From Candidatus Saccharimonadota bacterium (GTDB lineage: Bacteria; Patescibacteriota; Saccharimonadia; CAILAD01; BJGX01), in contig JAXLZU010000001.1 of NCBI GenBank assembly GCA_046350735.1, positions 384,967 through 448,966 on the forward strand: a DNA stretch of 64,000 nt, in the 5' to 3' direction. Position 1 is the first letter of the stretch; the number at the start of each line of letters is the position of its first letter. Under the pieces are notes generated by a model, which worked only from the letters and a program-made list of their open reading frames with translations, searched no databases and had not been told where the DNA came from. The translations under genes were made by a program, and so were the position numbers. Shown one piece after another: positions 29,019 to 62,378 of the stretch.

Positions 29019-29189
29019 TTGCTATTATTACTACTGATTACCAAAGACTGTGGCTGTGTAATACACTTAATTTGCTACAAGAGGTTACGATCGATACAGA
29101 TTGTTTACAAACCAGAAGTCTTTGGCGTTTGCTCAAAGGCTTTTTGTTTGGTAGTCGCAAGCACATTAACTAAAGAAGGTGTTAAACAT
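29019..29189 (+). promoter_or_regulatory. Long 5' leader of the rplJ-rplL operon (position of the L10 autoregulatory leader)
   Basis: ~200-nt noncoding gap upstream of the true rplJ ATG. The track ORF spanning it is spurious. Established operon architecture. Confidence 0.4.
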
Positions 29190-44941: not shown

Positions 44942-45418
44942 TTATTTTTTTGTTTTAGATTTCTTACTAAGTCTTTGCTGAATTTGCTTAATACTGGGTT
45001 TTGGCTCGTCTAGCACCTCAATTCTCATTGGCTTTCTACTAAAACCAATTTGCAGCATGCCAAAAGGCGAACCTGGTATAAGCCAAAATGTTGAGTAAGC
45101 AAAGCTCTTATGAAAAACTCTACCCAAGCGATACGCAACCGCTACAGAATAAACTGCGCCCACACCAGGAGTAAGAGAAAGGGCAAACCAGCTCTTTGGC
45201 AGTCGAAGAGCATGTATTAGCCGAGCAAAGTTATACATTGGCACAATGGCATGCCAGCCCGGCTCTCCGAGCTTGCGAAACACCATACTTAGCCCAAGAG
45301 CGTAACATAAGTAGAGGGCAATTGAGAAAATAATTACAATAATACCGGCATTAATAATGGCTTGTATCATATAATAATCGTACCATAGTTTGGTAGCACT
45401 ATTCTGTTTATCTACCAA
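44942..45418 (-). CDS. Hypothetical membrane protein
   Basis: Four hydrophobic segments. Lys-rich tail. Confidence 0.35.
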   Translation of the reverse strand: MVDKQNSATKLWYDYYMIQAIINAGIIVIIFSIALYLCYALGLSMVFRKLGEPGWHAIVPMYNFARLIHALRLPKSWFALSLTPGVGAVYSVAVAYRLGRVFHKSFAYSTFWLIPGSPFGMLQIGFSRKPMRIEVLDEPKPSIKQIQQRLSKKSKTKK

Positions 45419-45459
45419 TCTTGAAACTATAGCAAGTAAAAGCTATAATATAGCTCTAT

Positions 45460-45534
45460 TGGGGCGTGGCCAAGTGGTAAGGCAACGGCTTTTGGTGCCG
45501 TCATTCGTAGGTTCGAATCCTACCGCCCCAGCCA
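45460..45534 (+). tRNA. tRNA-Gln (anticodon TTG)
   Basis: Acceptor TGGGGCG/CGCCCCA. Anticodon stem ACGGC/GCCGT with loop uuUUGgu. T-arm GGTTCGAATCC. CCA. Confidence 0.8.
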
Positions 45535-45605
45535 TATAGAACGCAACTGCTCTTCGAACTCATCCTCACTCCTGTTATTTAAGCCATTTTTAGTAGTTTT
45601 GATTG

Positions 45606-47096
45606 TCATTTTGTAACCTCCATTAATTTACGTGTTTCTAAGACATTTTCCGCGATTGCACGAGCGAAATTCGTGTATTTAACAGATAGAGCACCTCCTT
45701 TTAATGTTACATCAGCGAAAAGTTTTGATATTATCAGCCTTTTTTGATCCGGCGACTTTTTGCAATAGATTCCAGCAGCCTTTTGCGATAGTTCTAGTAG
45801 GACGAGCCTTTGTTGCAGGCTCTTTGATAGTGAGTTATCCAGCTTGCTCAGTTTTCCACCAAGCTCTGTGAGTTGATCTGTGAACTGCTGGTGCTTTTCC
45901 TCGTACTTAGCTTGAGGTATGTCGCCGGATAACTTGTCATCATACAAACCCTCATCCATACGCTTAATACGGTCAATTTGGAGCTGGATGGAGGCTTGCA
46001 GCCTATCTTGGCCTTCTACCGTATCCTGGTAGTGCTCACGCATGGCATTAGCCACCCAGTCAATAATCGCTGGCGAGGGACAAATAAGCTTTTCTAACAT
46101 TTCAACGATCATTTGCTCAACTCGGTCTTCACGAAGTAGTTTGACGGTCTTACAAGTCTCACTACGACGCTTACAGACGCCGTAGTAGCGGCCTTTTTGC
46201 AACTGCCAAGTTACGGCAGTGCCACAGTCTTCACAGCGGATGAGACTCTTCAATGGCGGGTTATGTCGAACATAGACCAACGGCCGGCCTTTGTGCATTT
46301 TATGTTGTACCTTTTCAAACAAGTCTTTACTAATTATGGGTTCTTGGGCGCCTGGATAGTCTTTACCATTAAAGCGGTTAATGCCGATGTAAAATGGATT
46401 CGTTAATATCTTCTGCACCTGACTTTTCGCGTAAGGCCTACCTTTACGAGTCGTAATGCCCATTAGTTTCATTTCTTCAGCAACTGATGCTATGGAATGG
46501 TTTGGCTCGATATACTTCTTAAAGATCTCTTGCATTAGGCTGGTGGTCGCCGGATCAGGCACGTGAATACGTTTGCCACCTTCAACGATGGTTATGTAGC
46601 CCGGGGGTGGTACTGAGGGCAACCAGCCTTGGGCAAGCTTCTCAGCCCAACCCTTCATGGCTTCTTCACGGAGGTTGTCGGTGTACTTTTTAGCAACAGA
46701 TATATGGATATTCCACATAAACTTAACATCTGACTTGGCATTCTTGTGGAGTAATAAGTTCTCTTTAACAGCATGGAGTCTTCGGTTATCGTCTGTTTCT
46801 AACCAATCATCGATAGCTACTGCATCGCGAAAGTTTCGAGTAAACCGATCAGTTTTCTCAATAGCTAAGTGATAGATGTTGTTTTTAGAGATATAGGCTA
46901 GGAGTTCGTGGAAAACCTTACGGCTCTGTTCTTTTGAAGCCGTTTCAGCAATTTTAAAGACTTTAACAACCTTCAAGTCCTTATTTTCGCAATAGCCTTG
47001 TAGCAGCTTTAGTTGGGAATCTAACGAATAACCTTCATCTTCTTGGGACTTACTGGAGACTCGAGCTAGTATGACCGCGTTGAACTGTTGATCCAT
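45606..47096 (-). CDS. Large serine recombinase (resolvase catalytic domain + recombinase domain + zinc ribbon)
   Basis: AVILARVSSKSQ catalytic-Ser motif. 496 aa. C-terminal Cys cluster (CEDCGT...CKRRSETC). Coiled coil. Confidence 0.85.
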   Translation of the reverse strand: MDQQFNAVILARVSSKSQEDEGYSLDSQLKLLQGYCENKDLKVVKVFKIAETASKEQSRKVFHELLAYISKNNIYHLAIEKTDRFTRNFRDAVAIDDWLETDDNRRLHAVKENLLLHKNAKSDVKFMWNIHISVAKKYTDNLREEAMKGWAEKLAQGWLPSVPPPGYITIVEGGKRIHVPDPATTSLMQEIFKKYIEPNHSIASVAEEMKLMGITTRKGRPYAKSQVQKILTNPFYIGINRFNGKDYPGAQEPIISKDLFEKVQHKMHKGRPLVYVRHNPPLKSLIRCEDCGTAVTWQLQKGRYYGVCKRRSETCKTVKLLREDRVEQMIVEMLEKLICPSPAIIDWVANAMREHYQDTVEGQDRLQASIQLQIDRIKRMDEGLYDDKLSGDIPQAKYEEKHQQFTDQLTELGGKLSKLDNSLSKSLQQRLVLLELSQKAAGIYCKKSPDQKRLIISKLFADVTLKGGALSVKYTNFARAIAENVLETRKLMEVTK

Positions 47097-47104
47097 AACA
47101 ACCT

Positions 47105-47267
47105 CTTAAATAGCTCCCGCTAAGACTTCAAAGAAGTTTATGAGCGACTCGCCGACCTCTAGAGCTTCATCATAGCTAATTGACCGTTTTTGTTTTGTTT
47201 CGAGAATTTTACGGAGTACTTCGATACTATCAGTTGATAGTGTTTCGGTACTTTCTTGATTGTTCAT
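47105..47267 (-). CDS. 53-aa ORF directly upstream of the recombinase; possible recombination-directionality or regulatory mini-protein
   Basis: MNNQESTETLSTDSIEVLRKILETKQKRSISYDEALEVGESLINFFEVLAGAI. Below the ORF-track cut-off. Position only. Confidence 0.2.
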
Positions 47268-47379
47268 TCTGGATACCCTCCAATGCTTATAAGGATAGTA
47301 TACTACGCCTATAGGGATAGTTACAAGGGGTTTTCCACAGTAATTTTTAACTATTTTTCAGTGTATCTTTACAGCTAAT

Positions 47380-47826
47380 TTGTTTGGTTTTAACGGGGTT
47401 AAAGCAATTATGGCGTATAATAACGGTATGAAATCGCAGGCCGAGAACGATGTTAGAGACACGATAATCAATCCGTATTACGCGGTAACACTTGCTGACT
47501 ATCTATTTGAGGCTAAGAAGACAGCACTGGTCAAAGAAGACTGGGTACTTGCAAACACCAAGCTTATAAAGGAAATGGGCTCTTCCAACTGGCTAAAGCA
47601 GTTACTGGTAACGCTCACTACAGAACCGTCAGAAAATCTTACCCATATGGTGATGAGCCCGCGTCAAGCTGTGACGCTTTCTGAAAGATTAGCCGGTAAG
47701 CACGATCCTACAATAGATACTGCCTCGTGGATTAAAGCCAATGTGAAGTTAATTGATGAACTCGGCGCAGAGCAGTGGTTATGGCAACTACTCAAAGTTT
47801 TAGAGACAGGTGGCGTAGTCGAATAA
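47380..47826 (+). CDS. Hypothetical protein built from two ~50-aa internal repeats
   Basis: NPYYAVTLADYLFEAKK...WVLANTKLIKEMGSSNWLKQLLVTL versus SPRQAVTLSERLAGKHD...WIKANVKLIDELGAEQWLWQLLKVL. Confidence 0.35.
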   Translation: MFGFNGVKAIMAYNNGMKSQAENDVRDTIINPYYAVTLADYLFEAKKTALVKEDWVLANTKLIKEMGSSNWLKQLLVTLTTEPSENLTHMVMSPRQAVTLSERLAGKHDPTIDTASWIKANVKLIDELGAEQWLWQLLKVLETGGVVE

Positions 47827-48047
47827 AGGCATTTTAGGCCTCAAAAGTAATCCAAAATAAGCTTTCATAATTGTCCCCATGGGCGGGGACACTTTTTGAC
47901 TTGAGTATATCTGTTGGTATAGAATACTTGTATCTTCTACCTATTAAAGTATCGGAGTAGGAGGGGTAGGCATATTATCACCTCATCATCGTGAACCCAT
48001 GCTGCCCTTAACTTTAAAACTACTTCATTAACTATGCTCCATCTACT

Positions 48048-48833
48048 ATGAACTCTTCAAAAATTACTAGCAAACAACAAGCAATAATACAATTACTCTA
48101 CAAACACAGATTCTTAGACAGAACCCATATCCAGGCATTACTACACCACAAAGACAAACGACGTATTTTTGCTTGGCTGAAAGATCTTCGGGAAAAGGAA
48201 TACATCGAATGGATCTATGACAAGAACGATTTTGCCAACAAGACGAAACCTGCAGTTTACTATCTCGGTCTGAACGGCATACGATACCTCAGAACCCTCA
48301 ATGAGTATCCATCGACTGAACTACGCAAACGCTACAAAGAATCCTCACGACAGCAATCGTTCATTGGTCGCTGCCTGACACTAGCCGACTGTTGCATTAC
48401 CGCGGGAACCAAAAGTATTGGCGATGTGCAGTATTCATACGCATTAGAAGCAGACTACACCAAGCCTAATAACGAATACTACTTTTTAAATGAACTAAAA
48501 CCGCATTTGTGTTTTACCAAGCAGGATAGCACTGAACACAAGAGTTACTTACTGGAGGTGTTTGATACGACCACACCCAGCTACATGCTTAAGAAACGAC
48601 TAAAAGACTACATTGAATATCTTGATAGTGGCGAGTGGGAAGATGCGACTGGAGATAGCCAACCACCAATTGTACTGATGGCTTGTACGACTACCGCTGA
48701 TCTTCTCTATGCCAAACACCGAACTCGCACGTTACTAGAAGATGCTGGCAACGATAATCTTCATATTCGCTTCGCTACTCTCGAGAGACTCAGACAACAT
48801 GGTGTTACTGGAATAATTTGGGAAGAAACCTAG
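48048..48833 (+). CDS. Replication-relaxation family protein (winged-helix, plasmid/ICE-type)
   Basis: N-terminal QQAIIQLLYKHRFLDRTHIQALL...IFAWLKDLREKEYIEW typical of this family. Confidence 0.5.
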   Translation: MNSSKITSKQQAIIQLLYKHRFLDRTHIQALLHHKDKRRIFAWLKDLREKEYIEWIYDKNDFANKTKPAVYYLGLNGIRYLRTLNEYPSTELRKRYKESSRQQSFIGRCLTLADCCITAGTKSIGDVQYSYALEADYTKPNNEYYFLNELKPHLCFTKQDSTEHKSYLLEVFDTTTPSYMLKKRLKDYIEYLDSGEWEDATGDSQPPIVLMACTTTADLLYAKHRTRTLLEDAGNDNLHIRFATLERLRQHGVTGIIWEET

Positions 48834-49240
48834 CCAGAATTTGCATCAATATAGTCAAGAACTCTCTGTCGAAGCAGCTCACAACGTTTGATGGTCTTAT
48901 CGCTATCTCCTAGTGACTCACGATCAAGCACCTCGAATTCGCGGACTGATGATCCTTGCGGGAATTGCTGCCAGGTTAGATCAATGTGGAAGAGTGTTCC
49001 ATTGACAGACAGACCATTCCAGAAATGCTTATCTGCACTTCTGCTCATACCAGTCCATACCCATCCTTTAATAATTTCCATTTGAGGGAAGAATGACTGA
49101 ACAACCCAAGCTGTCGGGTAGCATTGGCCAAGAGCCGGGTTACCTTTCTGAGCAACGCCTAGATATGAAGTCTTTTTATCCCAAGATGCCTCAAGGGCTT
49201 CTCGTAAGTGAAGCAGATCGATATTTTGGTCTTTTGACAT
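48830..49240 (-). CDS. Hypothetical protein, possible papain-like/transglutaminase-like Cys-His hydrolase
   Basis: GQCYPTAW followed by HFWNG/FHIDLTW. Weak. Confidence 0.25.
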   Translation of the reverse strand: MSKDQNIDLLHLREALEASWDKKTSYLGVAQKGNPALGQCYPTAWVVQSFFPQMEIIKGWVWTGMSRSADKHFWNGLSVNGTLFHIDLTWQQFPQGSSVREFEVLDRESLGDSDKTIKRCELLRQRVLDYIDANSG

Positions 49241-49390
49241 GCATCGATTATCTCATTGATGGCTAGTATTAACGAGTCATTTGAGCGTCTTAAACCGTAA
49301 CCCCAAAAGAGTACGCTCTTTGGGGTTCCTTACTTTTCGAATAGAAAAGTAAGTTTGCAGCTAGATTCAGAAGATTGCTATGAACTCAAG

Positions 49391-49924
49391 TTACCATCTT
49401 AAGAGATTATTATGCGAATCAACCAGTTCTGCGCTAAGCCTTACATCCTCTAACGTGTAATCAGATGCTTCAGGATGGGTATGCGAAGCATCCTTCTTAA
49501 GGCGATCCATTTCTTTGGTTGCTTCTTGCTCAGTTTTCTTTCCAATAGTTTTTACGATAATTTTGTAAGTATAATCGTTGCCCTTAAGGCAGCTATACAC
49601 GAGCTTAACGAACCACCTGTACTTGTACCAATTTTCTTTGTCTATATCTGATAGTATTTGCTTAACTTTGTGGAGAATTTCTGAGGCAATTTGTTCCTCA
49701 GTCGCATCATAATCATCGATATCGCTACCGACATCCAATGAACCATCTTCACGCTCAAAATCAAGTTCATTAATGAAATTGATAGCAGTGACAGTATTAA
49801 GACTAAGCCCCTTTGTGTCAGGCTTTGTAATGGTTGCTAGTGCATCTACGGTTGCGACAGCATCGCTATTTTGACTTATAACTTTCCTGACTTTGTCTAG
49901 GTAGTCTTTTTCTAACTTGTTCAT
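49391..49924 (-). CDS. Hypothetical acidic protein
   Basis: ORF with coding-like composition. No motif. Confidence 0.3.
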   Translation of the reverse strand: MNKLEKDYLDKVRKVISQNSDAVATVDALATITKPDTKGLSLNTVTAINFINELDFEREDGSLDVGSDIDDYDATEEQIASEILHKVKQILSDIDKENWYKYRWFVKLVYSCLKGNDYTYKIIVKTIGKKTEQEATKEMDRLKKDASHTHPEASDYTLEDVRLSAELVDSHNNLLRW

Positions 49925-50018
49925 ATAACTATAGTAGCAGAGTAATGAATTTGAAGCTTGTGTTAAAGGCTAGTTTTCCAAACAAGATTACAGAGGTGTT
50001 TTCTGCTATGATAGGTAA

Positions 50019-50705
50019 ATGAACAAGCCCCATACAACACTATTTATGCTCATGTCTTTTGATGGTAAGATTTCAACTGGCACTATTGAAGAGCGGGACT
50101 TTGATAAAGATCTAGCCAAGGTTGGTAAGATTGCCGATGGGCTTAAGCAATACTATCAACTAGAGGAAGAAACTGACTTGTTTTCACTTAACACTGGTAA
50201 GGTTATGGCAAAAGTTGGCTGGAATGACGAGAAGGCCAGTATTGATAAGCTGCCCGTTAGCTTCGTCATTATCGACAGTAAACCTCATCTTACTAACTTA
50301 GGCGTAACAAACTTACTCAAACGAACCAAAAAGCTCTATATTGTCACTACCAACAAAGAACATCCTGCTTACAATATAAAAGATGACGACTTGGAAGTAA
50401 TGCACTTTGATAAACAGATTGATTTTGTGAAGCTTTTTGCAGATCTTGCGAATATGGGCGTAGACAGGCTGACTGTTCAGTCTGGCGGTACACTCAATGC
50501 TGTTCTATTCAGAGCTGGCTTGATTGATGAGCTGTCGGTTGTTATTGCACCGCTGATAGTTGGCGGTAAAGATACACCAACACTGGTTGACGGTGCTTCA
50601 TTAGTAACAGGTGAAGATTTGCGTCAGCTACGACCTCTTGAGCTTATTGAAGTAAAGAAACTAGACGGGTCATATATACATATGAAGTACAAAGTCATCA
50701 ATTAG
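50019..50705 (+). CDS. RibD C-terminal-domain (DHFR-fold) reductase family protein
   Basis: TLFMLMSFDGKISTG. DRLTVQSGGTLNAVLFRAGLIDELSVVIAPLIVGG. Confidence 0.6.
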   Translation: MNKPHTTLFMLMSFDGKISTGTIEERDFDKDLAKVGKIADGLKQYYQLEEETDLFSLNTGKVMAKVGWNDEKASIDKLPVSFVIIDSKPHLTNLGVTNLLKRTKKLYIVTTNKEHPAYNIKDDDLEVMHFDKQIDFVKLFADLANMGVDRLTVQSGGTLNAVLFRAGLIDELSVVIAPLIVGGKDTPTLVDGASLVTGEDLRQLRPLELIEVKKLDGSYIHMKYKVIN

Positions 50706-50803
50706 AGCTAATGTTTACATCCTTCAAATTTTGTATACCATGTAACTAGAGAGGGGCTTGTGTTTGCTTGCGAGGAGACCGAAGCTTCTTTTTTTGGTAA
50801 GAT

Positions 50804-51346
50804 ATGTGGATGGAACCAAAACCCATGCCTCCTGAAAACGAACCAACTATTGAGATTAAACTGTGTAGTGAAGCTGATTTAGCCTTACTTAACAAAGCCA
50901 TCCCTGCACCAGGCTATCATGAAAAAAGATTTGCAGAGCAAGAAGATGGTAAAAGTAGTTACCTAATTGCTTGGCAAAACGACGTACCAGTTGGTCACTT
51001 AAATCTTAAGTGGGAAGGTAGTGGACCACAAGTTAGTCAGTATTTGCCTAATACTCCCGAGCTAAATGCAATTGGGGTCTGGCCACCAGAAAAGCGTTCA
51101 CAAGGTATCGGTGGACAGTTAATTGTTCAAGCCGAAGCCATGGCAAAAGAAAAAGGCTTCAAGCAAGTTGCTCTTGCTGTTAGTTTGGACAACCCTCGAG
51201 CCAAAGAGCTATATGAAAAACATGGCTATAAAGATTGGGGTCATGGAGAATATTTTGATAAGTGGACTGAAAAAGATAGCGAAAGGAAAAAAATTCAACA
51301 CAACGACCCTTGTTACTACTTGGTTAAGAAATTGGAAGAAGACTAG
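50804..51346 (+). CDS. GNAT N-acetyltransferase
   Basis: IGVWPPEKRSQGIGGQLIVQAEAMAKEKGFKQVALAV acetyl-CoA-binding motif. Confidence 0.7.
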   Translation: MWMEPKPMPPENEPTIEIKLCSEADLALLNKAIPAPGYHEKRFAEQEDGKSSYLIAWQNDVPVGHLNLKWEGSGPQVSQYLPNTPELNAIGVWPPEKRSQGIGGQLIVQAEAMAKEKGFKQVALAVSLDNPRAKELYEKHGYKDWGHGEYFDKWTEKDSERKKIQHNDPCYYLVKKLEED

Positions 51347-51431
51347 TTCTCACCTCTAATACCACTCGGAGCCAGAGTTTATACTTGCTTGAGAGAAGAC
51401 AGAAGCTATTCTTTATTAGTATAATAACAAT

Positions 51432-51890
51432 ATGATTATTCTCATCGGTGGCGCGCCAAAAACGGGAAAAAGTTATTTGGCACACAACATTGCAAAACAA
51501 AAGAATGGTAAGGTTATTGAGTTAGATACTCTTATGCTGGAGTGGAACTTGAGCGTTTCAGATAAAGATTTTTCAAAAAAACTACCCGTATGGCAAGCTA
51601 AGAGAGATGGTAAAAAGTCGACTATAGAGGATTATAGAGTTGAAGCCCAAACCTACTGGCCAGCAATTAAATTACTAATAGACTCTGAGCTAAACAAAAC
51701 CAGCGTTAGCATTATTGAGGGTGCTCAACTATCCCCAAAGCTCTTACGACAATGGCTCGATAGCTTGAACGATAAACAGTCGCGTAGCGTAGAAGTTATC
51801 TTTCTTTCTCATAGTTCTGCTCCACTGAATAGTGAGTTTAAGGCAGACGCTGAAGTTAATGGGTTTAAAACTGTTCAAAGGGACATGTAA
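51432..51890 (+). CDS. Small P-loop NTPase/kinase (cargo kinase 1)
   Basis: Walker A IILIGGAPKTGKSYLA. ~150 aa, kinase-sized. Confidence 0.5.
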   Translation: MIILIGGAPKTGKSYLAHNIAKQKNGKVIELDTLMLEWNLSVSDKDFSKKLPVWQAKRDGKKSTIEDYRVEAQTYWPAIKLLIDSELNKTSVSIIEGAQLSPKLLRQWLDSLNDKQSRSVEVIFLSHSSAPLNSEFKADAEVNGFKTVQRDM

Positions 51891-51896
51891 TGAATT

Positions 51897-52388
51897 ATGC
51901 AATCTAACACTTACAAACTTATAATTTTAGCTCCATCTTGCGGAGGCAAATCGTCTCTGATGCGTTACTTACGAGAGCACACAGACCTACACATCGCCGA
52001 AACAGATGAAGAAGTTATGAAAGCAAATAATGATGTTTGGCCAGATGACGAGCTAAAAAACAAAGTGCTTGTACCTCGAACTACTAACGAAATAATTAGC
52101 AGAGAAAACGTAGTTTACTTTGCAAGCTATATTCCTACTGAGTTGATTCAAAAAGCCCGGCAAAAAGGCTTCAAGATAATTATTTTGGATACACCTTTAG
52201 GAGTCTTAAGGAAACGAAATTCTCAAAGGATGAGCAAAGAAGGATACGATGATGTCTCACGGTGGTTTAAAGGACAGTTAGACAACTATAAATCACTTGG
52301 TGAAAAACATATCGTAGACCAAGCTATTAATGGTAACCAGGATGTAGAGAAAGTTGCTGCAGAAGTTATGAAGGCAGCAAAAAGCTAA
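51897..52388 (+). CDS. Small P-loop kinase (shikimate/gluconate-kinase-like fold; cargo kinase 2)
   Basis: Walker A LIILAPSCGGKSSLMRYL followed by the acidic TDEE. Confidence 0.5.
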   Translation: MQSNTYKLIILAPSCGGKSSLMRYLREHTDLHIAETDEEVMKANNDVWPDDELKNKVLVPRTTNEIISRENVVYFASYIPTELIQKARQKGFKIIILDTPLGVLRKRNSQRMSKEGYDDVSRWFKGQLDNYKSLGEKHIVDQAINGNQDVEKVAAEVMKAAKS

Positions 52389-52389
52389 C

Positions 52390-53031
52390 ATGCAATCTAA
52401 CACGTTAAAATATAGTACGGAGTTCCAGAAACTCATCTCAAACCCAGAACAGTTTGCAGAATTGATGAAAGATAATGAATCAAGCCCTGTTTATGAAGAA
52501 TGGGAACAAAAACGACGTTTCATTGCTGATGTCGTAGATTCCGATGGTACTATTTTAGATATTGGGTGTGCCGGGGGGTTCTTCTTACGCAGCTTACAAG
52601 AGTGGTCTGGCCATAAACTAACTCCATATGGCGTGGATATCGACGAAGGTTATATTTATGCGGCCCAAAAGCTCTATCCCGATCTAAAAGATCACTTTGC
52701 AGTGCTCGATGTACGAGAAATAAATACAATATCAACTGTCGGTTTACCAGAGAACTATGACTTTGTGTACTGGAACTTCCTTGGGTTAAAGTATTTTAAA
52801 GATTCAAACTTACACGAAACAATTAAAAGTATTATTGCCTTAGCGAATAAACGCGTAATAGTGGGTTTTTATCGAGCAAATTCACCGAAAGCGACAGAAA
52901 CTGAGCAACAAGAAGAAAAAGCTCAACTAAAAAAGCGAGTTGATGACTTTACAAAAGACTGGCCGGTAACCGGTACGCTCTATAACCCAACTAAGTTTAA
53001 CCAAGCAATTGTGTGGATAGATAAAGAGTAA
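52390..53031 (+). CDS. Class I SAM-dependent methyltransferase
   Basis: Motif I ILDIGCAGGFF. Acidic post-I residue (YGVDID). Confidence 0.65.
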   Translation: MQSNTLKYSTEFQKLISNPEQFAELMKDNESSPVYEEWEQKRRFIADVVDSDGTILDIGCAGGFFLRSLQEWSGHKLTPYGVDIDEGYIYAAQKLYPDLKDHFAVLDVREINTISTVGLPENYDFVYWNFLGLKYFKDSNLHETIKSIIALANKRVIVGFYRANSPKATETEQQEEKAQLKKRVDDFTKDWPVTGTLYNPTKFNQAIVWIDKE

Positions 53032-53038
53032 TTCTGAT

Positions 53039-53527
53039 ATGGCGAAGTATAACTATCTCATTGAAGGCTTATCGGGCAGTGGTAAATCCTCTGTTTGCGA
53101 GGAACTTTTTCGGCGTGGCTACAACGCTGTTGATGCTGATGAAGAATATGCCTTTTTTGCAGACCCAGTGACGGGACAGCCCACAGAAGAACATCAGCAT
53201 ATGTATTGGGTATGGGATGCCAAGAAGATGACAACACTTCTCGCAGACAGGAACCAAGATGTACTATTTGTATGTGGCGGTGCCAATAATCGCGACGACT
53301 TTATGCATTACTTCGACAAGGTCTTCAACTTGAAGATTGATAAAGAGACTTTGCAGCAACGAATCACAACTCGAACAAACAACTCTTTTGGTAAAAAAGA
53401 ACATGAACTTGCTCGGATACTCGAATTGCATGGCCAAGGCTGGAAGCCAAAAGGAGCTATTGATATTGACGCCACTAAACCAATCCCTGCAGTTGCAGAT
53501 ACAATATTACAAGAGGTTGATAGATGA
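53039..53527 (+). CDS. Small P-loop kinase (cargo kinase 3)
   Basis: Walker A LIEGLSGSGKSSVCEEL and VDADEEY. Confidence 0.5.
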   Translation: MAKYNYLIEGLSGSGKSSVCEELFRRGYNAVDADEEYAFFADPVTGQPTEEHQHMYWVWDAKKMTTLLADRNQDVLFVCGGANNRDDFMHYFDKVFNLKIDKETLQQRITTRTNNSFGKKEHELARILELHGQGWKPKGAIDIDATKPIPAVADTILQEVDR

Positions 53528-53709
53528 ATAGAATTGGCGAAAAGAAACTAAATAATTGGAAAGAAACGTTAGCTAAATCTGGTCTTGTACTCAAGACAGA
53601 TGATGAGTACCTTGAGGCTTTCCACAATTTAGTCGGCTATTTTGACGTCTTGATACAGATGGACTATCAACAGCAAATTAAAAAGCGAGCAGCATCAGAT
53701 AGTAATTAA
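53524..53709 (+). CDS. 61-aa hypothetical ORF between the kinase block and the R-M pair
   Basis: Overlaps the kinase-3 stop. No motif. Confidence 0.25.
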   Translation: MNRIGEKKLNNWKETLAKSGLVLKTDDEYLEAFHNLVGYFDVLIQMDYQQQIKKRAASDSN

Positions 53710-53735
53710 GCTGCTATAAATGTAAAATAGAATCA

Positions 53736-54428
53736 ATGAATCAACTACTACCATTTATTACTGATGAGCTACTCAACAAGTACACAAAAGAGGTTTTAGA
53801 CAAAGCACACACTGCTGAGGCAGATGCTGAAGCAAAACTTTATAGCAATGTTATTGATCCATTTTCGGCAGTATTTGCTGCCACTCTTCACGACATGACA
53901 CTTGAAGAATGGCTTGTTCAAGAAAAGTCTCGGCAAATACAGAAAACCCTCGAAAACGCTTTGGGTGATTTTCATCAAAAAGTACTTGGTTCTATGCCTG
54001 GCTGGGAAAATGCTGGCAAGGGTGGCAGTTACGATATTAAGAATGAAACTAAAAAGATCATTGCTGAGATTAAGAACAAACACAATACCATGAACTCCAG
54101 CTCAGCAGAGGCAGTCTACCAAAAACTCGCCGGTCATCTCAGATTCTCAGAGAAAGACTTTACTGCTTACTTGGTATTTATTATTCCAAAGCCATCAGCC
54201 CGTTACGATAAAGAATGGTCTCCAAATCAACGAACCATGACCCTCCGTGATGATATCCGCAAAATTGATGGTGCAAGTTTTTATGATTTAGCATCGGGCA
54301 ATGAGAATGCTCTAAAAATGCTGTATGATGTGCTACCTAGTGTTATTAGTAACATCATGGGTACAAGCGAGCCGAAAGTGAAAGCAACCTCAGCTTTCGA
54401 TCAACTCTTCAAACGTGCTTATAAGTAG
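53736..54428 (+). CDS. Putative type II restriction endonuclease (PD-(D/E)xK)
   Basis: GGSYDIKNETKKIIAEIKNKHNT matches a D...ExK nuclease core. Sits immediately upstream of the C5-MTase. Confidence 0.4.
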   Translation: MNQLLPFITDELLNKYTKEVLDKAHTAEADAEAKLYSNVIDPFSAVFAATLHDMTLEEWLVQEKSRQIQKTLENALGDFHQKVLGSMPGWENAGKGGSYDIKNETKKIIAEIKNKHNTMNSSSAEAVYQKLAGHLRFSEKDFTAYLVFIIPKPSARYDKEWSPNQRTMTLRDDIRKIDGASFYDLASGNENALKMLYDVLPSVISNIMGTSEPKVKATSAFDQLFKRAYK

Positions 54429-54468
54429 TAACCCTTGCATTATGCAGTGGTTACTATAATATAGAAGC

Positions 54469-55707
54469 ATGAGTAGTTTACTTGTTATTTCTAAAGCCGC
54501 TGAAGAACTGGAGTTATCAACTGATACTATTAGGCGCTGGGAAAAAAAAGGTTTAATCAAATCTGTTCGATCTGATAACAACTATCGTCTCTTTAATGTT
54601 GAAGAAGTTCGTCGTATTCATAATAAAGTTTCTGGTAATCACAGTGCAACAAACAACTATAGAATCTTAAAAGCAAATACAAGTAGTTCTTATACTGCCA
54701 TTGATCTTTTTGCTGGTGCAGGGGGTACTGCACTTGGCCTTGAGAATGCCGGATTAATACATGTTCTATTGAATGAAAATGACAAAAATGCAGTGGCCAC
54801 CTTACGAAAAAATAGACCAGGCTGGAATATCATCCAGGATGATGTCGCTAAGGTAGATTTCAAACCTTTTAAAGGCAAGGTTGATGTCATTGAAGGCGGC
54901 TTTCCATGTCAGGCTTTTAGTTATGCTGGTAAGAAACTTGGCTTTAATGATACTCGCGGTACCTTATTTCACGAATTTGCACGGGCAGTTAAAGAAGTTC
55001 AACCAAAAATAGCTATTGGTGAGAATGTTAAAGGCCTGCTCTCACATGATGACGGTAAGACACTTAGTATTATGGTTGCTACACTTCAACAGCTTGGCTA
55101 TAGAGTGGCATATAAAGTAATGAGATCCCAATATTTAGATGTTCCCCAGAAACGTGAACGATTGCTTATTATCGCTGTTAGGAAAGATTTGAAGACTCCC
55201 ATTCTATTTCCTAAAGAAAAGGATTACACGATCTCGCTTAAAGAAGCTATTGGTGATAAACCACAATCAGGGGGTCAGGAGTACTCGGATAAAAAGAAGC
55301 GAATCATGAAACTGGTTCCTCCCGGAGGATATTGGCGCAGTCTCCCTGAAAAAATCCAAAAAGAATATATGATGACTAGTTACTATATGGGTGGTGGTAA
55401 AACTGGCATGGCCAGGAGATTGTCCTGGGACGAACCGAGCCTCACCCTTACCTGTAATCCAGCACAGAAACAAACCGAGCGTTGTCACCCAGAAGACACG
55501 CGACCACTTAACGTTCGTGAGTACGCCCGTATACAGACTTTCCCGGATGATTGGGTGTTTGAAGGCTCCGTATCCTCTGCTTATAAGCAGATTGGAAATG
55601 CGGTACCTGTTAACCTCGGGTATTACATGGGTACTGCTGCTATTGCCATGCTGTCCGGCAGAACCTCGGATGACCTCGAAGAAGTTAAAGAATTACCAAA
55701 AATCTAA
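54469..55707 (+). CDS. DNA (cytosine-5)-methyltransferase with an N-terminal MerR-like HTH
   Basis: Motif I FAGAGG. IV GFPCQAFS. VI ENVKGL. X QIGNAVP. N-terminal ISKAAEELELSTDTIRRWEKKGLIKS. Confidence 0.9.
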   Translation: MSSLLVISKAAEELELSTDTIRRWEKKGLIKSVRSDNNYRLFNVEEVRRIHNKVSGNHSATNNYRILKANTSSSYTAIDLFAGAGGTALGLENAGLIHVLLNENDKNAVATLRKNRPGWNIIQDDVAKVDFKPFKGKVDVIEGGFPCQAFSYAGKKLGFNDTRGTLFHEFARAVKEVQPKIAIGENVKGLLSHDDGKTLSIMVATLQQLGYRVAYKVMRSQYLDVPQKRERLLIIAVRKDLKTPILFPKEKDYTISLKEAIGDKPQSGGQEYSDKKKRIMKLVPPGGYWRSLPEKIQKEYMMTSYYMGGGKTGMARRLSWDEPSLTLTCNPAQKQTERCHPEDTRPLNVREYARIQTFPDDWVFEGSVSSAYKQIGNAVPVNLGYYMGTAAIAMLSGRTSDDLEEVKELPKI

Positions 55708-55991
55708 CCTAACGGTAGACTCAGCAAATTATCTACTTTAGTTTCGTCTGGTTCTGTTTGCACCCAACTTCCATTAACATTTGATACAACATATAGAGCC
55801 GCACGATAACCCTGTACTTCGGTGAAAAATGTCCCTGGCTTACTATTATTTACTCTTTCTACCATGTCTTGCCGTGATGACCAGTGTAGAGTACCGCTAT
55901 CGGTACCCCATTGTAGTGCAGCTATGTGACGAACGTGATTTGGCATCCCAACTGTCATTCTTCTTGCTACTACTTGTCCGATTTTTGCCAT
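55704..55991 (-). CDS. Hypothetical 95-aa protein
   Basis: ORF only. Confidence 0.3.
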   Translation of the reverse strand: MAKIGQVVARRMTVGMPNHVRHIAALQWGTDSGTLHWSSRQDMVERVNNSKPGTFFTEVQGYRAALYVVSNVNGSWVQTEPDETKVDNLLSLPLG

Positions 55992-56077
55992 AATAACCTC
56001 CTTTTTTAAATTTCCCTCAAATATATTATATTTATATAGTAGTACTGGTAGACCACTTCCGTCAATATTATTTATGC

Positions 56078-56106
56078 TTGTAAGTATCTAGAACTGTATA
56101 TATAAT
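56078..56106 (+). promoter_or_regulatory. Sigma70-like promoter TTGTAA-17bp-TATAAT, 8 nt upstream of the ATG at 56114 (leaderless-type transcript)
   Basis: Read directly from the sequence. Confidence 0.5.
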
Positions 56107-56113
56107 GTGATGT

Positions 56114-56380
56114 ATGGATAGTAAAGAACCCACAAGCTACAATAAAGACAACTACACAGACGAGGCAAAACGCGAACGCTTTATTCGTGTTGCAGAGCGC
56201 CGAACAAATCGTATACTAGAAGACTTAAGACTACTTGGGAATACCAGTAATAAGACCTTATATCTCTATAGTATTGGTGATATAGAAAAGATATTTGGAT
56301 CGATTGAAACACGACTGACTGAGGTAAAGTCAAAGTTTAAAACTGGTAAAAACAAAGATAAGTTTAAGTTAGAAAGTTAA
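56114..56380 (+). CDS. 88-aa hypothetical protein, first gene of a two-gene module
   Basis: Basic, helical. Stop is 2 nt before the next ATG. Confidence 0.35.
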   Translation: MDSKEPTSYNKDNYTDEAKRERFIRVAERRTNRILEDLRLLGNTSNKTLYLYSIGDIEKIFGSIETRLTEVKSKFKTGKNKDKFKLES

Positions 56381-56382
56381 TC

Positions 56383-57534
56383 ATGGATAATCAAACGATC
56401 ACTTGCCCCAAATGCAAAACTAACATCCCTCTATCTGAAGCTATCACACATCAAATAAGTGACTCTATTATAAAAGAAGAACGTGAAAAGCTAATGCAGG
56501 AGGCTGAAGCGGCTAAGCAGGTAGCCTTAGCAGAAGCGAACAAAGCCACTTCTAAGAAATTTGAGCAAGAGCTTAAAAACCAAAAAGAAGAAGTTGAAAT
56601 AGAAAAAGAAGCCAATAAGGAACTGCGTGGACAGCTAAGTGAACTTATGAAGTCGCTACGAACCGAAAAGCAGGCTCGGGAAAATGCAGAACTTGAGGCA
56701 CAAAAGAGATTAGCTGTTGAAGAGAATAAAATACGCGAAGAAGTTGCAAAAAATGCTGATGAAAAGTATCGTCTGAAATTAGCCGAACAAGAAAAGCAAC
56801 TTGCCGATACGAAGAAGGCTTTGGAAGACGCGAAGCGTAAGGCCGAGCAGGGATCTCAGCAGAATCAAGGTGAAGTTTTGGAATTAGACCTGGAGAATCG
56901 TCTGCGTGAAGAGTTTCCGTTTGATCAAATTGAAGAGGTTAAAAAAGGTCAACGAGGAGCCGATTTAAAACAAATTGTTAAAAATCAGAGTCTAGCAGCT
57001 TGCGGGATATTGCTTTGGGAAACTAAAAACGGTAAATGGCAACCAGCATGGGTACCAAAATTCAAACAAGATATTCGTGAAGCAAATGCTAGTATTGGTG
57101 TGATTGTATCGCAAGAAATACCAAGCGAATATAGTGACATGAAACACCTGGAAACAAATGTCTGGGTCGTTAAGCCACGCCTAGCACCTGTGTTAGCAGC
57201 AGCATTGCGTACAACTATTTTACAGGTGGATGCAGCAAACAAGATGAATGCCGGTAAAGACGCCAAAATGGAGGCACTATATCAATTCTTGGTTGGCCCA
57301 GAATTTCGTCATCGTGTTGAAGCAATTGTAGAAAATTACGGTGCGTTACAGTCAGAAATTGAAAAGGAAAAACGTGCCGCTGCTCTTCGCTGGGCTCATC
57401 AAGAAAAGTCTATCCGAGCCGTCATTGATAACACTATCGGCATGTATGGCGATCTCCAAGGCATCACTAATCGCGCTCTACCTACAATAAAAACACTTGA
57501 GTTACCTGAACCTAACGAGAGTGAAGATACATAA
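56383..57534 (+). CDS. DUF2130-like protein: N-terminal CxxC zinc-ribbon-like motif, long coiled coil, C-terminal predicted PD-(D/E)xK nuclease domain
   Basis: TCPKCKT. ~170-aa E/K/A/Q-rich coil. C-terminal ELDLE...GADLKQIV...WETKNGK. Confidence 0.45.
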   Translation: MDNQTITCPKCKTNIPLSEAITHQISDSIIKEEREKLMQEAEAAKQVALAEANKATSKKFEQELKNQKEEVEIEKEANKELRGQLSELMKSLRTEKQARENAELEAQKRLAVEENKIREEVAKNADEKYRLKLAEQEKQLADTKKALEDAKRKAEQGSQQNQGEVLELDLENRLREEFPFDQIEEVKKGQRGADLKQIVKNQSLAACGILLWETKNGKWQPAWVPKFKQDIREANASIGVIVSQEIPSEYSDMKHLETNVWVVKPRLAPVLAAALRTTILQVDAANKMNAGKDAKMEALYQFLVGPEFRHRVEAIVENYGALQSEIEKEKRAAALRWAHQEKSIRAVIDNTIGMYGDLQGITNRALPTIKTLELPEPNESEDT

Positions 57535-57555
57535 ACTTGAATCTGATCATAGTTT

Positions 57556-57837
57556 TTATTTAGATCCCTCATCAAGCAGAGAAATAATTTGATATCCGTA
57601 TTTATCTACCTCTTCTTTTGTCCAAAAATCTGAGTCTTTTGTCTTACCGACAAAACCTACTTTACGTTTGAGGGTTCGACCAGTCGGCTGCTTTGTTGTT
57701 GGATCAATTTCATTGAGAACTAGTGTATCACCTGGCTGGCAATCCCAATCAGCCAAGCGAAGCTCATAGGTTTTTTCGCCAGAAAGGATCTTGTCAAAAA
57801 ATTCGGGCAAGATTTTCTTTTCAATTGTTTTACTCAT
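57556..57837 (-). CDS. ASCH/PUA-like small protein
   Basis: 93 aa, FDKILSGEKTYELR...GDTLVLNE pattern typical of ASCH/DUF3850. Confidence 0.35.
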   Translation of the reverse strand: MSKTIEKKILPEFFDKILSGEKTYELRLADWDCQPGDTLVLNEIDPTTKQPTGRTLKRKVGFVGKTKDSDFWTKEEVDKYGYQIISLLDEGSK

Positions 57838-58499
57838 ATTATTTTCCCGTCTTTTATCTTTATTGATTCACTGCCAATAGTGTACTGCTTGTCAGTTTCA
57901 ACAACTACGGCAGAGTCATCATGTAAACCATAAATGAGGCCACTATAATTTTTTGCTACATCAAGTAACACCTCTTTCCGGTTATTTGGAAATAAGGGAT
58001 TACCAAGATGGGGCTTAATAGCTAGGTCAACCAAACCGAGATATTGAGATATACCATAATCGTTTGCTTCACCATAAATCTTTTGATAAGCCTCTGTAGA
58101 AACACGGTTGCAAATAACCATTGAGCCTGCACTACTACCAACATATACTTTGTTCTCTAAAAGTTCAGGCAGTAACTTATCAAAGCCCGTCTTTTTGAAA
58201 ACACTCATAAGGTAATCAGTATGGCCACCCACGACGAAAATTACATCGGCATGTTTGATTCGCTTCTTTACTGTATCAAGGTCAAGTGCAAGCAAGTTAA
58301 CCAGCTCCATATTGCCCTTGAAGTTCCTTTTAATGCGGTTTAGGTCATCTAACACCCATCCATGGTCACCGTGCTCTACAGCATATGCCTCATTAATGAC
58401 AGCAAAGTTAATCTTGTTTTGCGGCTTCCCAACAAGCTGCACACACTTTTCAATAATTTCAGGCGTATAAAAGCCGGCTGAAGCTAAAATGAGTTTCAT
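57834..58499 (-). CDS. Peptidase S51 (dipeptidase E / cyanophycinase-like) family protein
   Basis: VIFVVGGHTDYL and GSSAGSMV (catalytic Ser). Confidence 0.5.
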   Translation of the reverse strand: MKLILASAGFYTPEIIEKCVQLVGKPQNKINFAVINEAYAVEHGDHGWVLDDLNRIKRNFKGNMELVNLLALDLDTVKKRIKHADVIFVVGGHTDYLMSVFKKTGFDKLLPELLENKVYVGSSAGSMVICNRVSTEAYQKIYGEANDYGISQYLGLVDLAIKPHLGNPLFPNNRKEVLLDVAKNYSGLIYGLHDDSAVVVETDKQYTIGSESIKIKDGKII

Positions 58500-58501
58500 A
58501 G

Positions 58502-58885
58502 CTATAAGTTCTCGTCGATAAACTTCTTGAGGGCGTCCATATCTTCTTTGGTATGATCATAAAAATACGTCTTGATATCAGCCGATTCTGCACTTTTCAC
58601 TGCATCTTGGTTGTGTTCAAAGTAGATAGCATCTTTGGCGTTGAGGTTATAGTGTTTGAGTAACGTGTGAAAGTAAGCTGGGTCAGTCTTTTCAGGGTCA
58701 TGTTTGAGAGTAAATACTTCGTAAGGCACCTGATCGAGTTTGAACTCTTTAAACTGCTCGTCATTTGCTCCAGTCAGAACGATCTTCTTGTTTGGATAGG
58801 TTTCGAGAAGCTTGTACATACTCTCAAGAATACTACCGTCTTCCAGTACTAAGCCATTAATTGCGTCTACAAGTATTGTTTTCAT
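58502..58885 (-). CDS. Small HAD-like/hypothetical protein
   Basis: MKTILVDAINGLV N-terminus resembles HAD motif I. Weak. Confidence 0.3.
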   Translation of the reverse strand: MKTILVDAINGLVLEDGSILESMYKLLETYPNKKIVLTGANDEQFKEFKLDQVPYEVFTLKHDPEKTDPAYFHTLLKHYNLNAKDAIYFEHNQDAVKSAESADIKTYFYDHTKEDMDALKKFIDENL

Positions 58886-59256
58886 TTTGTAGCTACCACA
58901 CTTATTTCAATGCTCGCACCAAGTGGCAAGGCTTGTACGCAGACAGCTTCACGAACTGGAAAGGGTTCTTTGAAATAGTTAGAGTAAGCTTCGTTAAGTT
59001 CGGGCATTTGTGCCATGTCAGTGACGTAGATAACTACTTTCACTATGTCGTCTAGAGCTGTATTAGTAACCTTAAGAATCGCCAAAATATTAGACATTAT
59101 CTGGTCTACTTTTTCTTTTACTGATCCTTCAACTACAGAACCATCTGGTTTGTTATGGATTTGTCCGGATACATATACTGTGCTATTACTCACAATACCT
59201 TGTGAAAGGATATGATCGGCTTTTGGCGCATTATTGGTACTAACTTTCTCTTTCAT
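58882..59256 (-). CDS. RidA/YjgF/TdcF-family reactive-intermediate deaminase
   Basis: DDIVKVVIYVTDMAQMPELNEAYSNYF. 124 aa. Confidence 0.7.
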   Translation of the reverse strand: MKEKVSTNNAPKADHILSQGIVSNSTVYVSGQIHNKPDGSVVEGSVKEKVDQIMSNILAILKVTNTALDDIVKVVIYVTDMAQMPELNEAYSNYFKEPFPVREAVCVQALPLGASIEISVVATK

Positions 59257-59278
59257 TTTACAATCTCCTATGGTTTAA

Positions 59279-59686
59279 CTACTTCTTAATTACCGCTGTT
59301 ACTTCAATTTCAATCTTTGCACCATCTCTGGTCATTCTGTTGGCTTCTATCAGTGTGCTTACTGGCATTGCTTTTTTGAAGTACTCGCCTCTAATTTTTG
59401 AAATCTTATCAAAGTCATTCATATCGGTAATATAAATGACTGCCTTTACGACATTGTCTATAGTGGCATCTGCTTGCTGTAGTATCTTTGTAATGTCTTC
59501 AAATACTAGTTTTGTTTGTTCCTCTATATCATCAGTTACTACTCTATGGTTATCGTCTTTAGGTGCTTGAACACCTGATACAAAGATAAGGTAATAGTCA
59601 CCTAGATCTATTTTCTTGGCTGGAGTGTAGCTGCCTCTTGTTTTGTAGTCTTCAGGGATTATGTCTTTGATGAAATCTTTACTCAT
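59279..59686 (-). CDS. Second RidA/YjgF-family protein (tandem paralog)
   Basis: DNVVKAVIYITDMNDFDKISKIRGEYF. 135 aa. Confidence 0.65.
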   Translation of the reverse strand: MSKDFIKDIIPEDYKTRGSYTPAKKIDLGDYYLIFVSGVQAPKDDNHRVVTDDIEEQTKLVFEDITKILQQADATIDNVVKAVIYITDMNDFDKISKIRGEYFKKAMPVSTLIEANRMTRDGAKIEIEVTAVIKK

Positions 59687-59754
59687 TGCTTGTAATTATA
59701 TCTTAAAGTGTATGCTAAAAACACCTTGCCCAGTCTTTTTCAGGTGCTTTAGAC

Positions 59755-62370: not shown

Positions 62371-62378
62371 AATCCTCC

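Follow-up and report, generated by a model that had tools for sequence, protein, structure and literature searches.

What could a run of six genes for small enzymes, three of them predicted kinases, contribute to a Saccharibacterium that carries it on a mobile element? The question arises at positions 50019–53527 of a 64,000-nucleotide (nt) stretch of a Candidatus Saccharimonadota genome (GenBank assembly GCA_046350735.1, contig JAXLZU010000001.1, positions 384,967 to 448,966 of the forward strand), the whole of which is referred to below as the window. The original prediction, made from the DNA letters and their translations, described six co-oriented open reading frames (ORFs) in this interval, encoding a RibD_C reductase, a GNAT N-acetyltransferase, a class I S-adenosylmethionine (SAM)-dependent methyltransferase and three P-loop proteins of about 155 amino acids (aa), here designated K1, K2 and K3 in the order of their genes. 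All six ORFs were recovered on the plus strand at these positions with the gene content as described, and the Walker A strings GAPKTGKS, PSCGGKSS and GLSGSGKSS were found in the translations of K1, K2 and K3, respectively.

The functions proposed for the block were small-molecule modification or resistance of known type or, alternatively, a multi-step nucleotide pathway. Every resistance model tried for the kinases, the GNAT, the methyltransferase and the reductase failed to identify its protein, and as far as family models can tell the block contains no gene of a characterised family of resistance or housekeeping type. The reading that we favour, and to which we give about an even chance, sees the block as a patchwork of accessory genes, each acquired independently and carried on a mobile element, with products that modify exogenous small molecules. 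They are members of known enzyme superfamilies, and K2 represents a family for which Pfam has no model.

Three small P-loop kinases

The kinase-like proteins are encoded at 51432–51890 (K1, 152 aa), 51897–52388 (K2, 163 aa) and 53039–53527 (K3, 162 aa), all on the plus strand. They had been taken for paralogues, a description that did not survive an all-against-all BLASTP comparison, in which nothing better than E = 0.3 was obtained and the three fell into separate families. Profile comparisons with hhalign gave a probability of 92% for K1 and K3 (12% identity), 91% for K2 and K3 (18% identity) and 45%, confined to the P-loop region, for K1 and K2. Judged by these alignments, K1, K2 and K3 share a superfamily, not recent ancestry. 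Motifs of catalytic type are kept, namely Walker A and the aspartate after strand β2 in all three families and an RxxxR pair in K2 and K3, and the proteins are presumed to be active kinases. Structure prediction, which had been proposed as a check, agreed with the fold assignment: the AlphaFold2 models of K1 and K2, with predicted local distance difference test (pLDDT) scores of 96.8 and 95.3, respectively, have the P-loop kinase fold.

Housekeeping functions were assessed with NCBIfam equivalog cut-offs, a full-length match being expected. The original prediction had allowed that the three proteins might turn out to be ordinary Cmk, Tmk or Adk enzymes; K1–K3 remained below the cut-off of every nucleoside monophosphate (NMP) kinase (Adk, Cmk, Tmk and Gmk). 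For K3 the scores were 26.4 against a cut-off of 83.25 for dTMP kinase (P-loop only, residues 6–26), 15.4 against 160 for Gmk and 14.3 against 168 for Adk, K1 scored 14.1 against 102 with archaeal CMP kinase, and no NMP-kinase model was listed for K2. The cut-offs for CoaE, AroK/AroL, GntK and 2-phosphoglycerate kinase (2PGK) were likewise reached by none of the three. Searches with hidden Markov models of resistance- and toxin-type kinases, suggested as a further check, went against the proposed likeness: CPT (PF07931, gathering score 22) and Zeta_toxin (PF06414, gathering score 22.3) gave no match at E ≤ 0.1 for K1, K2 or K3, and SKI and AAA_33 stayed below threshold. The family AAA_18 (PF13238, gathering score 29.4) was reached by K3 with 39.0 bits over residues 7–128 (1.3e-9), K1 (19.3) and K2 (18.3) falling below it; the Pfam matches of K1 and K2 are sub-threshold P-loop matches only.

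K1 is rare. An exhaustive search of 1.84 billion representatives returned only 26 matches at E ≤ 1e-3, of which 22 match the mevalonate-3-phosphate 5-kinase model (best 7e-13) and 20 the 2PGK model (best 4e-13), all of them below threshold. K1 itself scored 18.6 bits against a cut-off of 343 bits for 2PGK and 15.9 against 250 bits for mevalonate-3-phosphate 5-kinase. Its Walker A motif reads GGAPKTGKS, and G7, P9, G12, K13, D32, E96, G97 and P102 are invariant in the family. A Foldseek search of the PDB with the K1 model found generic P-loop kinases only, with template modelling (TM) scores of 0.4–0.55. The single-sequence search of the PDB gave nothing significant, the family profile matched only P-loop segments of AAA ATPases in the PDB, which is uninformative, and there was no match to K1 in the plasmid collection. 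To judge from these profiles, K1 is a rare, distant relative, at the level of the superfamily, of the 2PGK/mevalonate-3-phosphate 5-kinase group. One K1 homologue, P0204 (335 aa), is extended at its C terminus by a fused domain of about 180 aa, for which Pfam returned no match and which gives no functional clue.

K2 has homologues in at least 136 clusters, nearly all without a Pfam match. In GTDB species genomes 15 loci were found; the titles that name a taxon all refer to Saccharibacteria or Saccharimonadia, four of the 15 being titled only 'uncultured bacterium' or 'bacterium'. By the distribution of its homologues, K2 is a kinase family without a Pfam model that was found only in Saccharibacteria. 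The Walker A motif is APSCGGKS, and the invariant residues include S14, G16, G17, K18, S19, E35, D37, E39, W48, P49, R107 and R111. The folds closest to the K2 model were those of gluconokinase (3t61) and shikimate kinase (2pt5), with 1knq also among the matches, at TM scores of 0.65–0.71 and identities of 20% or less; with the AroK model K2 scored 13.1 against 195 bits. A phage polynucleotide kinase was among the fold matches, and the viral matches of K2 were generic kinases. Nothing significant was found in a single-sequence search of the PDB, and there was no match in the plasmid and phage collections. In public annotation (NCBI and Logan) K2 starts at Met22, which yields 142 aa, omits 51897–51959 and loses the Walker A motif. 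Because L11, S14, G16, G17, K18 and S19 are invariant across 42 homologues, we take the 163-aa ORF to be correct.

The K3 family, with the Walker A motif GLSGSGKS and the invariant residues G10, G15, K16, D34, W59, G80, N84, R108 and R112, matched gluconate kinase 1knq (1e-7), shikimate kinase (8e-7) and AK6/hCINAP (3e-5) when its profile was compared with the PDB; with the single sequence, gluconate kinase was matched weakly (0.008). The likeness to 1knq is at low identity, and with the gluconokinase model (GntK/IdnK, TIGR01313) K3 scored 17.7 against a cut-off of 113.75. Its score with SKI (PF01202) was 18.4 against a gathering score of 22.1, below that of a shikimate kinase, and the resemblance of K2 and K3 to shikimate kinase is one of fold only. 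There was no match to K3 in the phage collection.

Elsewhere K3 relatives occur in contrasting settings. In two Saccharibacteria genomes (loci L004, 8001–10559, and L006, 8001–9705) K3 orthologues of 50–61% identity overlap or abut the gene for the 16S rRNA dimethyltransferase KsgA, within the core order UvrD, Rpf-like protein, K3, KsgA, GNAT, transglutaminase-like protein and tRNA synthetase; this linkage points to a possible ribosome-linked role for the K3 family. A third Patescibacterium carries a K3 homologue on another island, with a serine recombinase, restriction-modification (R-M) genes and AbiEii. Homologues of 41% identity, to which RefSeq gives the name 'nucleoside kinase', reside on Rhizobium megaplasmids, where the rhizobial gene stands alone among ArsR, VOC, APH-family and NmrA genes.

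Companion enzymes and extent of the block

The reductase (50019–50705, plus strand, 228 aa) is a member of RibD_C (77.4 bits, 1.6e-21, cut-off 24.1) and is annotated as a 'dihydrofolate reductase family protein'. Its best solved relative is the Methanocaldococcus jannaschii enzyme 2azn (1.5e-16), with which the GGTLN and GGK-type nucleotide-binding stretches align. A trimethoprim-insensitive reductase had been proposed, an idea not borne out by the family search, in which RibD_C was found and DHFR_1 gave no match at E ≤ 0.1. The protein is the sole member of its 90% cluster; a homologue of 44.5% identity lies on a Subdoligranulum plasmid, itself unannotated, GC-rich and with many overlapping ORFs. 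No other riboflavin genes stand beside the reductase gene, its neighbours being unrelated. An orthologue of the riboflavin-pathway reductase was considered and ruled out on these neighbours and on the score with the archaeal pyrimidine reductase model TIGR01508, which was 78.4 bits against an equivalog cut-off of 186.

For the GNAT (50804–51346, plus strand, an ORF of 180 aa) the evidence is of generic membership only (Acetyltransf_1, 51.3 bits, 1.7e-13, cut-off 20.7). Specific NCBIfam models all remained below their cut-offs, with scores of 42.9 against 86.4 for RimI, 26.1 against 140 for AAC(6') group E, 12.4 against 420 for STAT and 24.1 against 170 for ArsN1a, and the proposal of an aminoglycoside or streptothricin acetyltransferase was dropped on the AAC(6') and STAT values. 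Most members of its 90% cluster are 173 aa long and begin with MPPE, which corresponds to window position 50825; the true start is therefore probably at 50825, giving 173 aa.

The methyltransferase (52390–53031, plus strand, 213 aa) is likewise assigned at the generic class I level only (Methyltransf_25, 32.4 bits, 1.6e-7, cut-off 27), and its best PDB match, 3dh0 (1e-3), covers the SAM-binding region only. An rRNA resistance methyltransferase, as had been suggested, was contradicted by scores of 14.7 against 250 for Rmt and 20 against 303 for RlmA and by the lack of a match to RrnaAD (Erm/KsgA). A metagenome scan with the methyltransferase found only two loci, both without kinases.

The genes of the block are real coding sequences under purifying selection. 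The proportions of nonsynonymous (pN) and synonymous (pS) differences between the GNAT and its 88% homologue were 0.06 and 0.73, and pN was well below pS in the other homologue pairs tested too. The block also appears to extend one gene further than described, to a 61-aa ORF at 53524–53709 on the plus strand, which shares 4 nt with the end of K3, including the stop codon, and belongs with the block. It is called as a gene and accompanies K3 on three contigs of identical sequence; nothing was found for it at the thresholds used in Pfam, PHROGs and PADLOC, and its sole NCBIfam match is at chance level (E = 0.074).

The intergenic gaps across the six genes are, in order, 98, 85, 6, 1 and 7 nt. 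The tight packing remarked on in the original prediction thus holds from K1 onwards, but is not exceptional: where the window is chromosomal, 42% of the pairs of adjacent genes on one strand lie within 10 nt of each other, and for this reason the spacing is weak evidence of coupling. A single transcript here probably runs from K1 through K2, the methyltransferase and K3 to the 61-aa ORF, which is probably the last gene of the unit. A promoter-like site, AAGACA-18-TATAAT (10/12), lies within 51396–51435 and ends 6 nt before the K1 ATG, so that it would yield a leaderless or near-leaderless mRNA; in the promoter and terminator scan the counts were no higher than in shuffled sequence. The GTATAATAAC..ATGA motif of this upstream site recurs at 47415–47431, upstream of the ORF at 47380–47826.

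Gene company elsewhere and the carrier element

If the block were a functional whole, its genes might be expected to travel together. Homologues of all block proteins were sought by tBLASTN and HMM searches in all of about 40 fetched loci, and the combination was never repeated. The only recurring link was that in L018, L020, L030 and L031 K2 is directly preceded by a distant K3-like gene; in at least six unrelated contexts K2 homologues stand alone. The 88% GNAT homologue (L035–L037) lies in a run of a K3-like kinase (34% identity), GNAT, a second GNAT and an AAA_33 kinase. A 62% homologue of the methyltransferase (L039) is alone between a Fic protein with the HPFxDGNGR motif and a putative ATP synthase a subunit, neighbours identified by reading their translations.

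Small kinases nevertheless do occur in series. Three in a row had seemed unusual, a view that has to be given up for this lineage, as runs of two to four different small kinases were found in other Saccharibacteria loci. At L030 (157–2875 of JBAXPC010000014.1) four different intact small P-loop kinases follow one another, accompanied by a remnant of the K2 N terminus. With 31.5 and 22.8 bits, two of the four kinases exceed the CPT gathering score of 22, one of the two passing that of Zeta_toxin as well. Two kinases stand in tandem in L018, L020 and L031, and in L035–L037 kinases are interleaved with GNATs. Taken together, these loci indicate that kinase runs are a recurrent feature of Saccharibacteria variable regions.

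That a mobile element carries the block as cargo, as originally proposed, was supported by comparison with two sister genomes (L032 and L033). These are 97–98% identical to the window at the nucleotide level from 32681 up to exactly 45534, which is the last base of a tRNA-Gln(UUG) gene (45460–45534, plus strand; ARAGORN and Rfam), and the 3' end of this tRNA gene forms the left junction of the insertion. A large serine recombinase, the presumed integrase (45606–47096, minus strand; Resolvase, Recombinase and Zn_ribbon_recom domains), lies 72 nt away and is missing at the same site in the sister genomes, which past the junction have DUF1801 and glycosyltransferase genes, neither of them in the window. 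Past the junction the window instead holds, besides the recombinase, a replication-relaxation family protein of the element backbone (48048–48833, plus strand; Replic_Relax, 5.5e-10), YunG, the block and an Eco47II R-M pair. Farther along follow DUF2130, peptidase S51, two RidA genes, a VirD4-like ATPase, a CHAP protein and a TraG/VirB4-like ATPase. The 90% clusters of the VirD4-like, CHAP, S51 and 127-aa o127 proteins contain this genome alone, whereas that of a control core gene (an ion channel) includes the sister-genome copies; the TraG/VirB4-like ATPase lay outside this comparison. From the junction at 45534 and from the absence of the sister genomes from the clusters of the island genes, the insertion is at least 18.5 kb long and extends beyond the end of the window.

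At its left junction the insertion thus combines the presence/absence polymorphism, the sharp tRNA boundary and the site-specific recombinase of an integrative mobile element. A search for direct repeats of att type at 45300–59000 found short chance repeats only, as expected for a recombinase of the serine type. By gene content and junction, the carrier is a strain-specific, tRNA-Gln-integrated element resembling an integrative and conjugative element (ICE), with its right end predicted to lie beyond the window. The type IV secretion loci of Patescibacteria are reported to be mostly chromosomal and without a relaxase (PMC12102498), and in the light of that report the insertion at 45535–64000 may be a genuine ICE. 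This survey and one of resistance genes in the candidate phyla radiation (CPR) were the only relevant items that literature searches for Saccharibacteria ICEs or kinase arrays turned up. A carrier with genes of type IV secretion type may in fact merit more attention than its cargo.

A related element occurs in another Saccharibacterium (L022, 1–11603 of CAZXLT010000004.1). Within 11.6 kb it holds relatives of the CHAP (57% identity), VirD4 (42%) and o127 (79%) proteins, a K2 homologue (67%), and a replication-relaxation protein and a serine recombinase of only about 25% identity. Its cargo is distinct, with a His_Phos_1 phosphatase and an ABC-F ATPase (504 aa) adjacent to a major facilitator superfamily (MFS) transporter.

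Several further features of the window belong to the island. The R-M genes directly downstream of the block (53736–55707, plus strand) encode an Eco47II-type endonuclease (RE_Eco47II, 2.4e-59) and a C5 cytosine methyltransferase (DNA_methylase, 3.4e-83) to which a MerR-type helix-turn-helix domain is fused N-terminally, an arrangement that may serve self-regulation of the R-M system. The o127 gene (58502–58885, minus strand) has a weak HAD_2 match (E = 0.005). Its relatives of 69–79% identity adjoin K2 homologues elsewhere (L022, 4356–4739; L023, 1459–1839), and in the window it lies 6 kb from K2 on the opposite strand. Between o127 and the VirD4-like gene are two tandem RidA/L-PSP genes (58882–59686, minus strand; 124 and 135 aa), and the VirD4/TraG-like coupling ATPase, CHAP hydrolase and TraG/VirB4-like P-loop ATPase, identified by Pfam, occupy 59755–63940 on the minus strand. 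Separately, a ribosomal protein L10 leader (Rfam RF00557) was noted at 29023–29155, with a score of 44.4 against a gathering score of 44.

Function of the block and its known relatives

On the reading that we favour, each product would be a stand-alone enzyme acting on a small substrate, drawn from families that are reshuffled as cargo between Saccharibacteria loci. The three P-loop kinases, from three families, would transfer phosphoryl groups from ATP, the GNAT acetyl groups from acetyl-CoA and the class I methyltransferase methyl groups from SAM, and the RibD_C reductase would transfer hydride from NAD(P)H. Such modifications could inactivate or capture exogenous small molecules encountered on the surface of the host, candidate targets being antibiotics or toxins made by the host, or metabolites derived from it. 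We infer a role in detoxification or modification as the most plausible one. We lean towards exogenous compounds because of the CPT-like kinases in the L030 array, the ABC-F and MFS genes of the L022 element and the APH, VOC and ArsR genes beside the rhizobial K3 homologue. The detoxification reading fits a reported abundance of divergent resistance-like genes in the genomes of the CPR (PMC8651080).

Several points weigh against this reading. No resistance-family threshold in Pfam or NCBIfam was passed by any of the six proteins, and the detoxification idea draws on gene company and on ecological reasoning. The synteny sample of about 40 loci includes many short contigs. The four gaps of no more than 7 nt between K1 and the 61-aa ORF might stem from genuine functional coupling in this element. 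In some lineages the K3 orthologue belongs to the core genome and adjoins KsgA, which hints at a role of housekeeping type, and the RefSeq name of the rhizobial homologues points in another direction again.

That name bears on the main rival explanation, which we regard as possible though on balance doubtful: at least one of K1–K3 would phosphorylate nucleosides, nucleotides or host metabolites and so trap them in the epibiont, the island adding to or replacing the capacity for salvage of an organism unable to make its own building blocks. To our knowledge Saccharibacteria lack de novo nucleotide synthesis, which would favour such a role, and K1–K3 all have the fold of NMP, shikimate or gluconate kinases. 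K3 orthologues are core in other Saccharibacteria, and among the homologues listed no second gene of the K3 or K2 family came from the window's 797-kb contig. The neighbours of K2 elsewhere, which include His_Phos_1 and CTP_transf_like genes and one with a weak Nuc_deoxyrib_tr match, are of a suitable kind as well. However, the 'nucleoside kinase' name of the 41%-identical rhizobial proteins is not reproduced by NCBIfam, the Adk, Cmk, Tmk, Gmk, CoaE and dNK models scored far below their cut-offs or gave no match, and the genes are strain-specific cargo, missing from sister genomes of 97–98% identity. The KsgA linkage belongs to another explanation, in which K3, perhaps K2, the methyltransferase and the acetyltransferase would act on rRNA, ribosomal proteins or RNA ends, on the model either of Fap7/AK6 with Dim1/KsgA or of the healing of RNA ends by polynucleotide kinase; these variants together we consider improbable. 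Core K3 orthologues in two genomes overlap or abut KsgA, with a GNAT and a tRNA synthetase following, and in the window K3 again follows a SAM methyltransferase, at a distance of 7 nt. The AK6/hCINAP match of the K3 profile, the RimI model as best NCBIfam match of the GNAT, 2',5' RNA ligase (2H) genes that L010 and L036 hold in the vicinity of K2 or K3-like genes, and the phage polynucleotide kinase among the fold matches of K2 all fit. Yet the better matches to K3 are gluconate and shikimate kinases, with AK6 behind them, and generic kinases fit K2 at least as well as polynucleotide kinase does. Scores with the RimI, RlmA and Rmt models fall well short of the cut-offs, and the window's own methyltransferase and GNAT share no relationship with the KsgA and GNAT encoded at the core locus. 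RNA repair of Hen1/Pnkp type was a separate candidate, rejected for want of an NCBIfam match.

The idea of a single multi-step pathway, with the six enzymes acting in sequence on a nucleotide or cofactor, is unlikely. Co-orientation, gaps of at most 7 nt from K1 to the 61-aa ORF and the promoter-like AAGACA-18-TATAAT just upstream of K1 would suit it, but such spacing is normal in this genome and such promoter-like sites are no more frequent than in shuffled sequence. No fetched locus with a homologue of one gene holds the others, which goes against the pathway as first suggested, and K1, with 26 matches in 1.84 billion representatives, and K2, with at least 136 clusters, cannot be obligate partners. 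A role in anti-phage defence, or as an accessory module of the adjacent Eco47II system, is very unlikely indeed. The block does lie directly upstream of the R-M pair, and other homologues of K3 and K2 have R-M and AbiEii genes as neighbours on their islands. Islands, however, commonly bring defence genes together with other cargo without a functional link. PADLOC gave chance-level matches only, over short stretches (mad2 2e-4, VakA 3.5e-3, PDC-S01 3.9e-3), no relative of K2 or K3 turned up in the phage collection, and a PHROGs search of the block returned chance-level or generic matches only.

The reading of the block as a patchwork of modifying enzymes can be carried further. Saccharibacteria might keep and exchange, on integrative elements, a set of small stand-alone kinases, K2 included, that is particular to the lineage, rapidly reshuffled and often joined by GNATs, as a mobile 'chemical shield' that would phosphorylate or acetylate antibiotics or toxic metabolites of actinobacterial hosts or competitors. 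The K3 family, core and KsgA-linked in some lineages, could also be a bacterial counterpart of the small-subunit maturation kinase Fap7/AK6. Both of these ideas, taken jointly, we hold to be rather unlikely; the shield, if real, would mean that an obligate epibiont possesses a resistome so far uncharacterised. More generally, should the enzymes prove to inactivate antibiotics, whether made by the host or present in the environment, the block would exemplify a mobile resistance reservoir of uncharacterised families in a barely tractable lineage, and K2 would be a new kinase family worth characterising. The analysis also has corrective value, in that the block is neither a known resistance cassette nor a pathway, its kinases are not paralogues, and kinase runs are normal in Saccharibacteria variable regions.

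Set beside known systems, the parts of the block resemble several and coincide with none. K2 and K3 share with gluconate kinases (GntK/IdnK) and shikimate kinases (AroK/AroL) the fold, a size of about 160–175 aa, Walker A, the aspartate after strand 2 and a lid-type RxxxR pair, at identities of 20% or less; in place of the shikimate-binding GGG-type motif K2 has FASYIP, and K3 has FVCGG together with conserved tryptophan residues. With the 2PGK/mevalonate-3-phosphate 5-kinase family (PRK04220, PRK12339) the K1 family shares the GGxxGxGKS/T P-loop and an IIEGxxLxP motif, but K1, at 152 aa, is shorter, the C-terminal part of the approximately 210-aa relatives being absent, and it has no close solved structure (best TM score about 0.55). 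Like CPT-like, zeta toxin and TmrB-type kinases, K1–K3 are small stand-alone P-loop kinases on accessory DNA; the lack of a CPT or Zeta_toxin match at the threshold given above sets them apart from the first two of these groups. The reductase shares the RibD_C fold with the pyrimidine reductase MJ0671 (2azn) and, not being of DHFR_1 type, differs from the Dfr-type trimethoprim-resistance enzymes. The pairing of ABC-F and MFS genes on the L022 element is reminiscent of the msr/mef macrolide-resistance pair. The closest parallel for the carrier is with the serine-recombinase ICEs of monoderm bacteria; the host here is a Patescibacterium and the element is known from its genes alone, but it has in common with those ICEs the tRNA-adjacent insertion, the large serine recombinase, the replication-relaxation protein, the VirD4-like ATPase and the CHAP protein, together with an R-M system and a cargo of miscellaneous enzymes.

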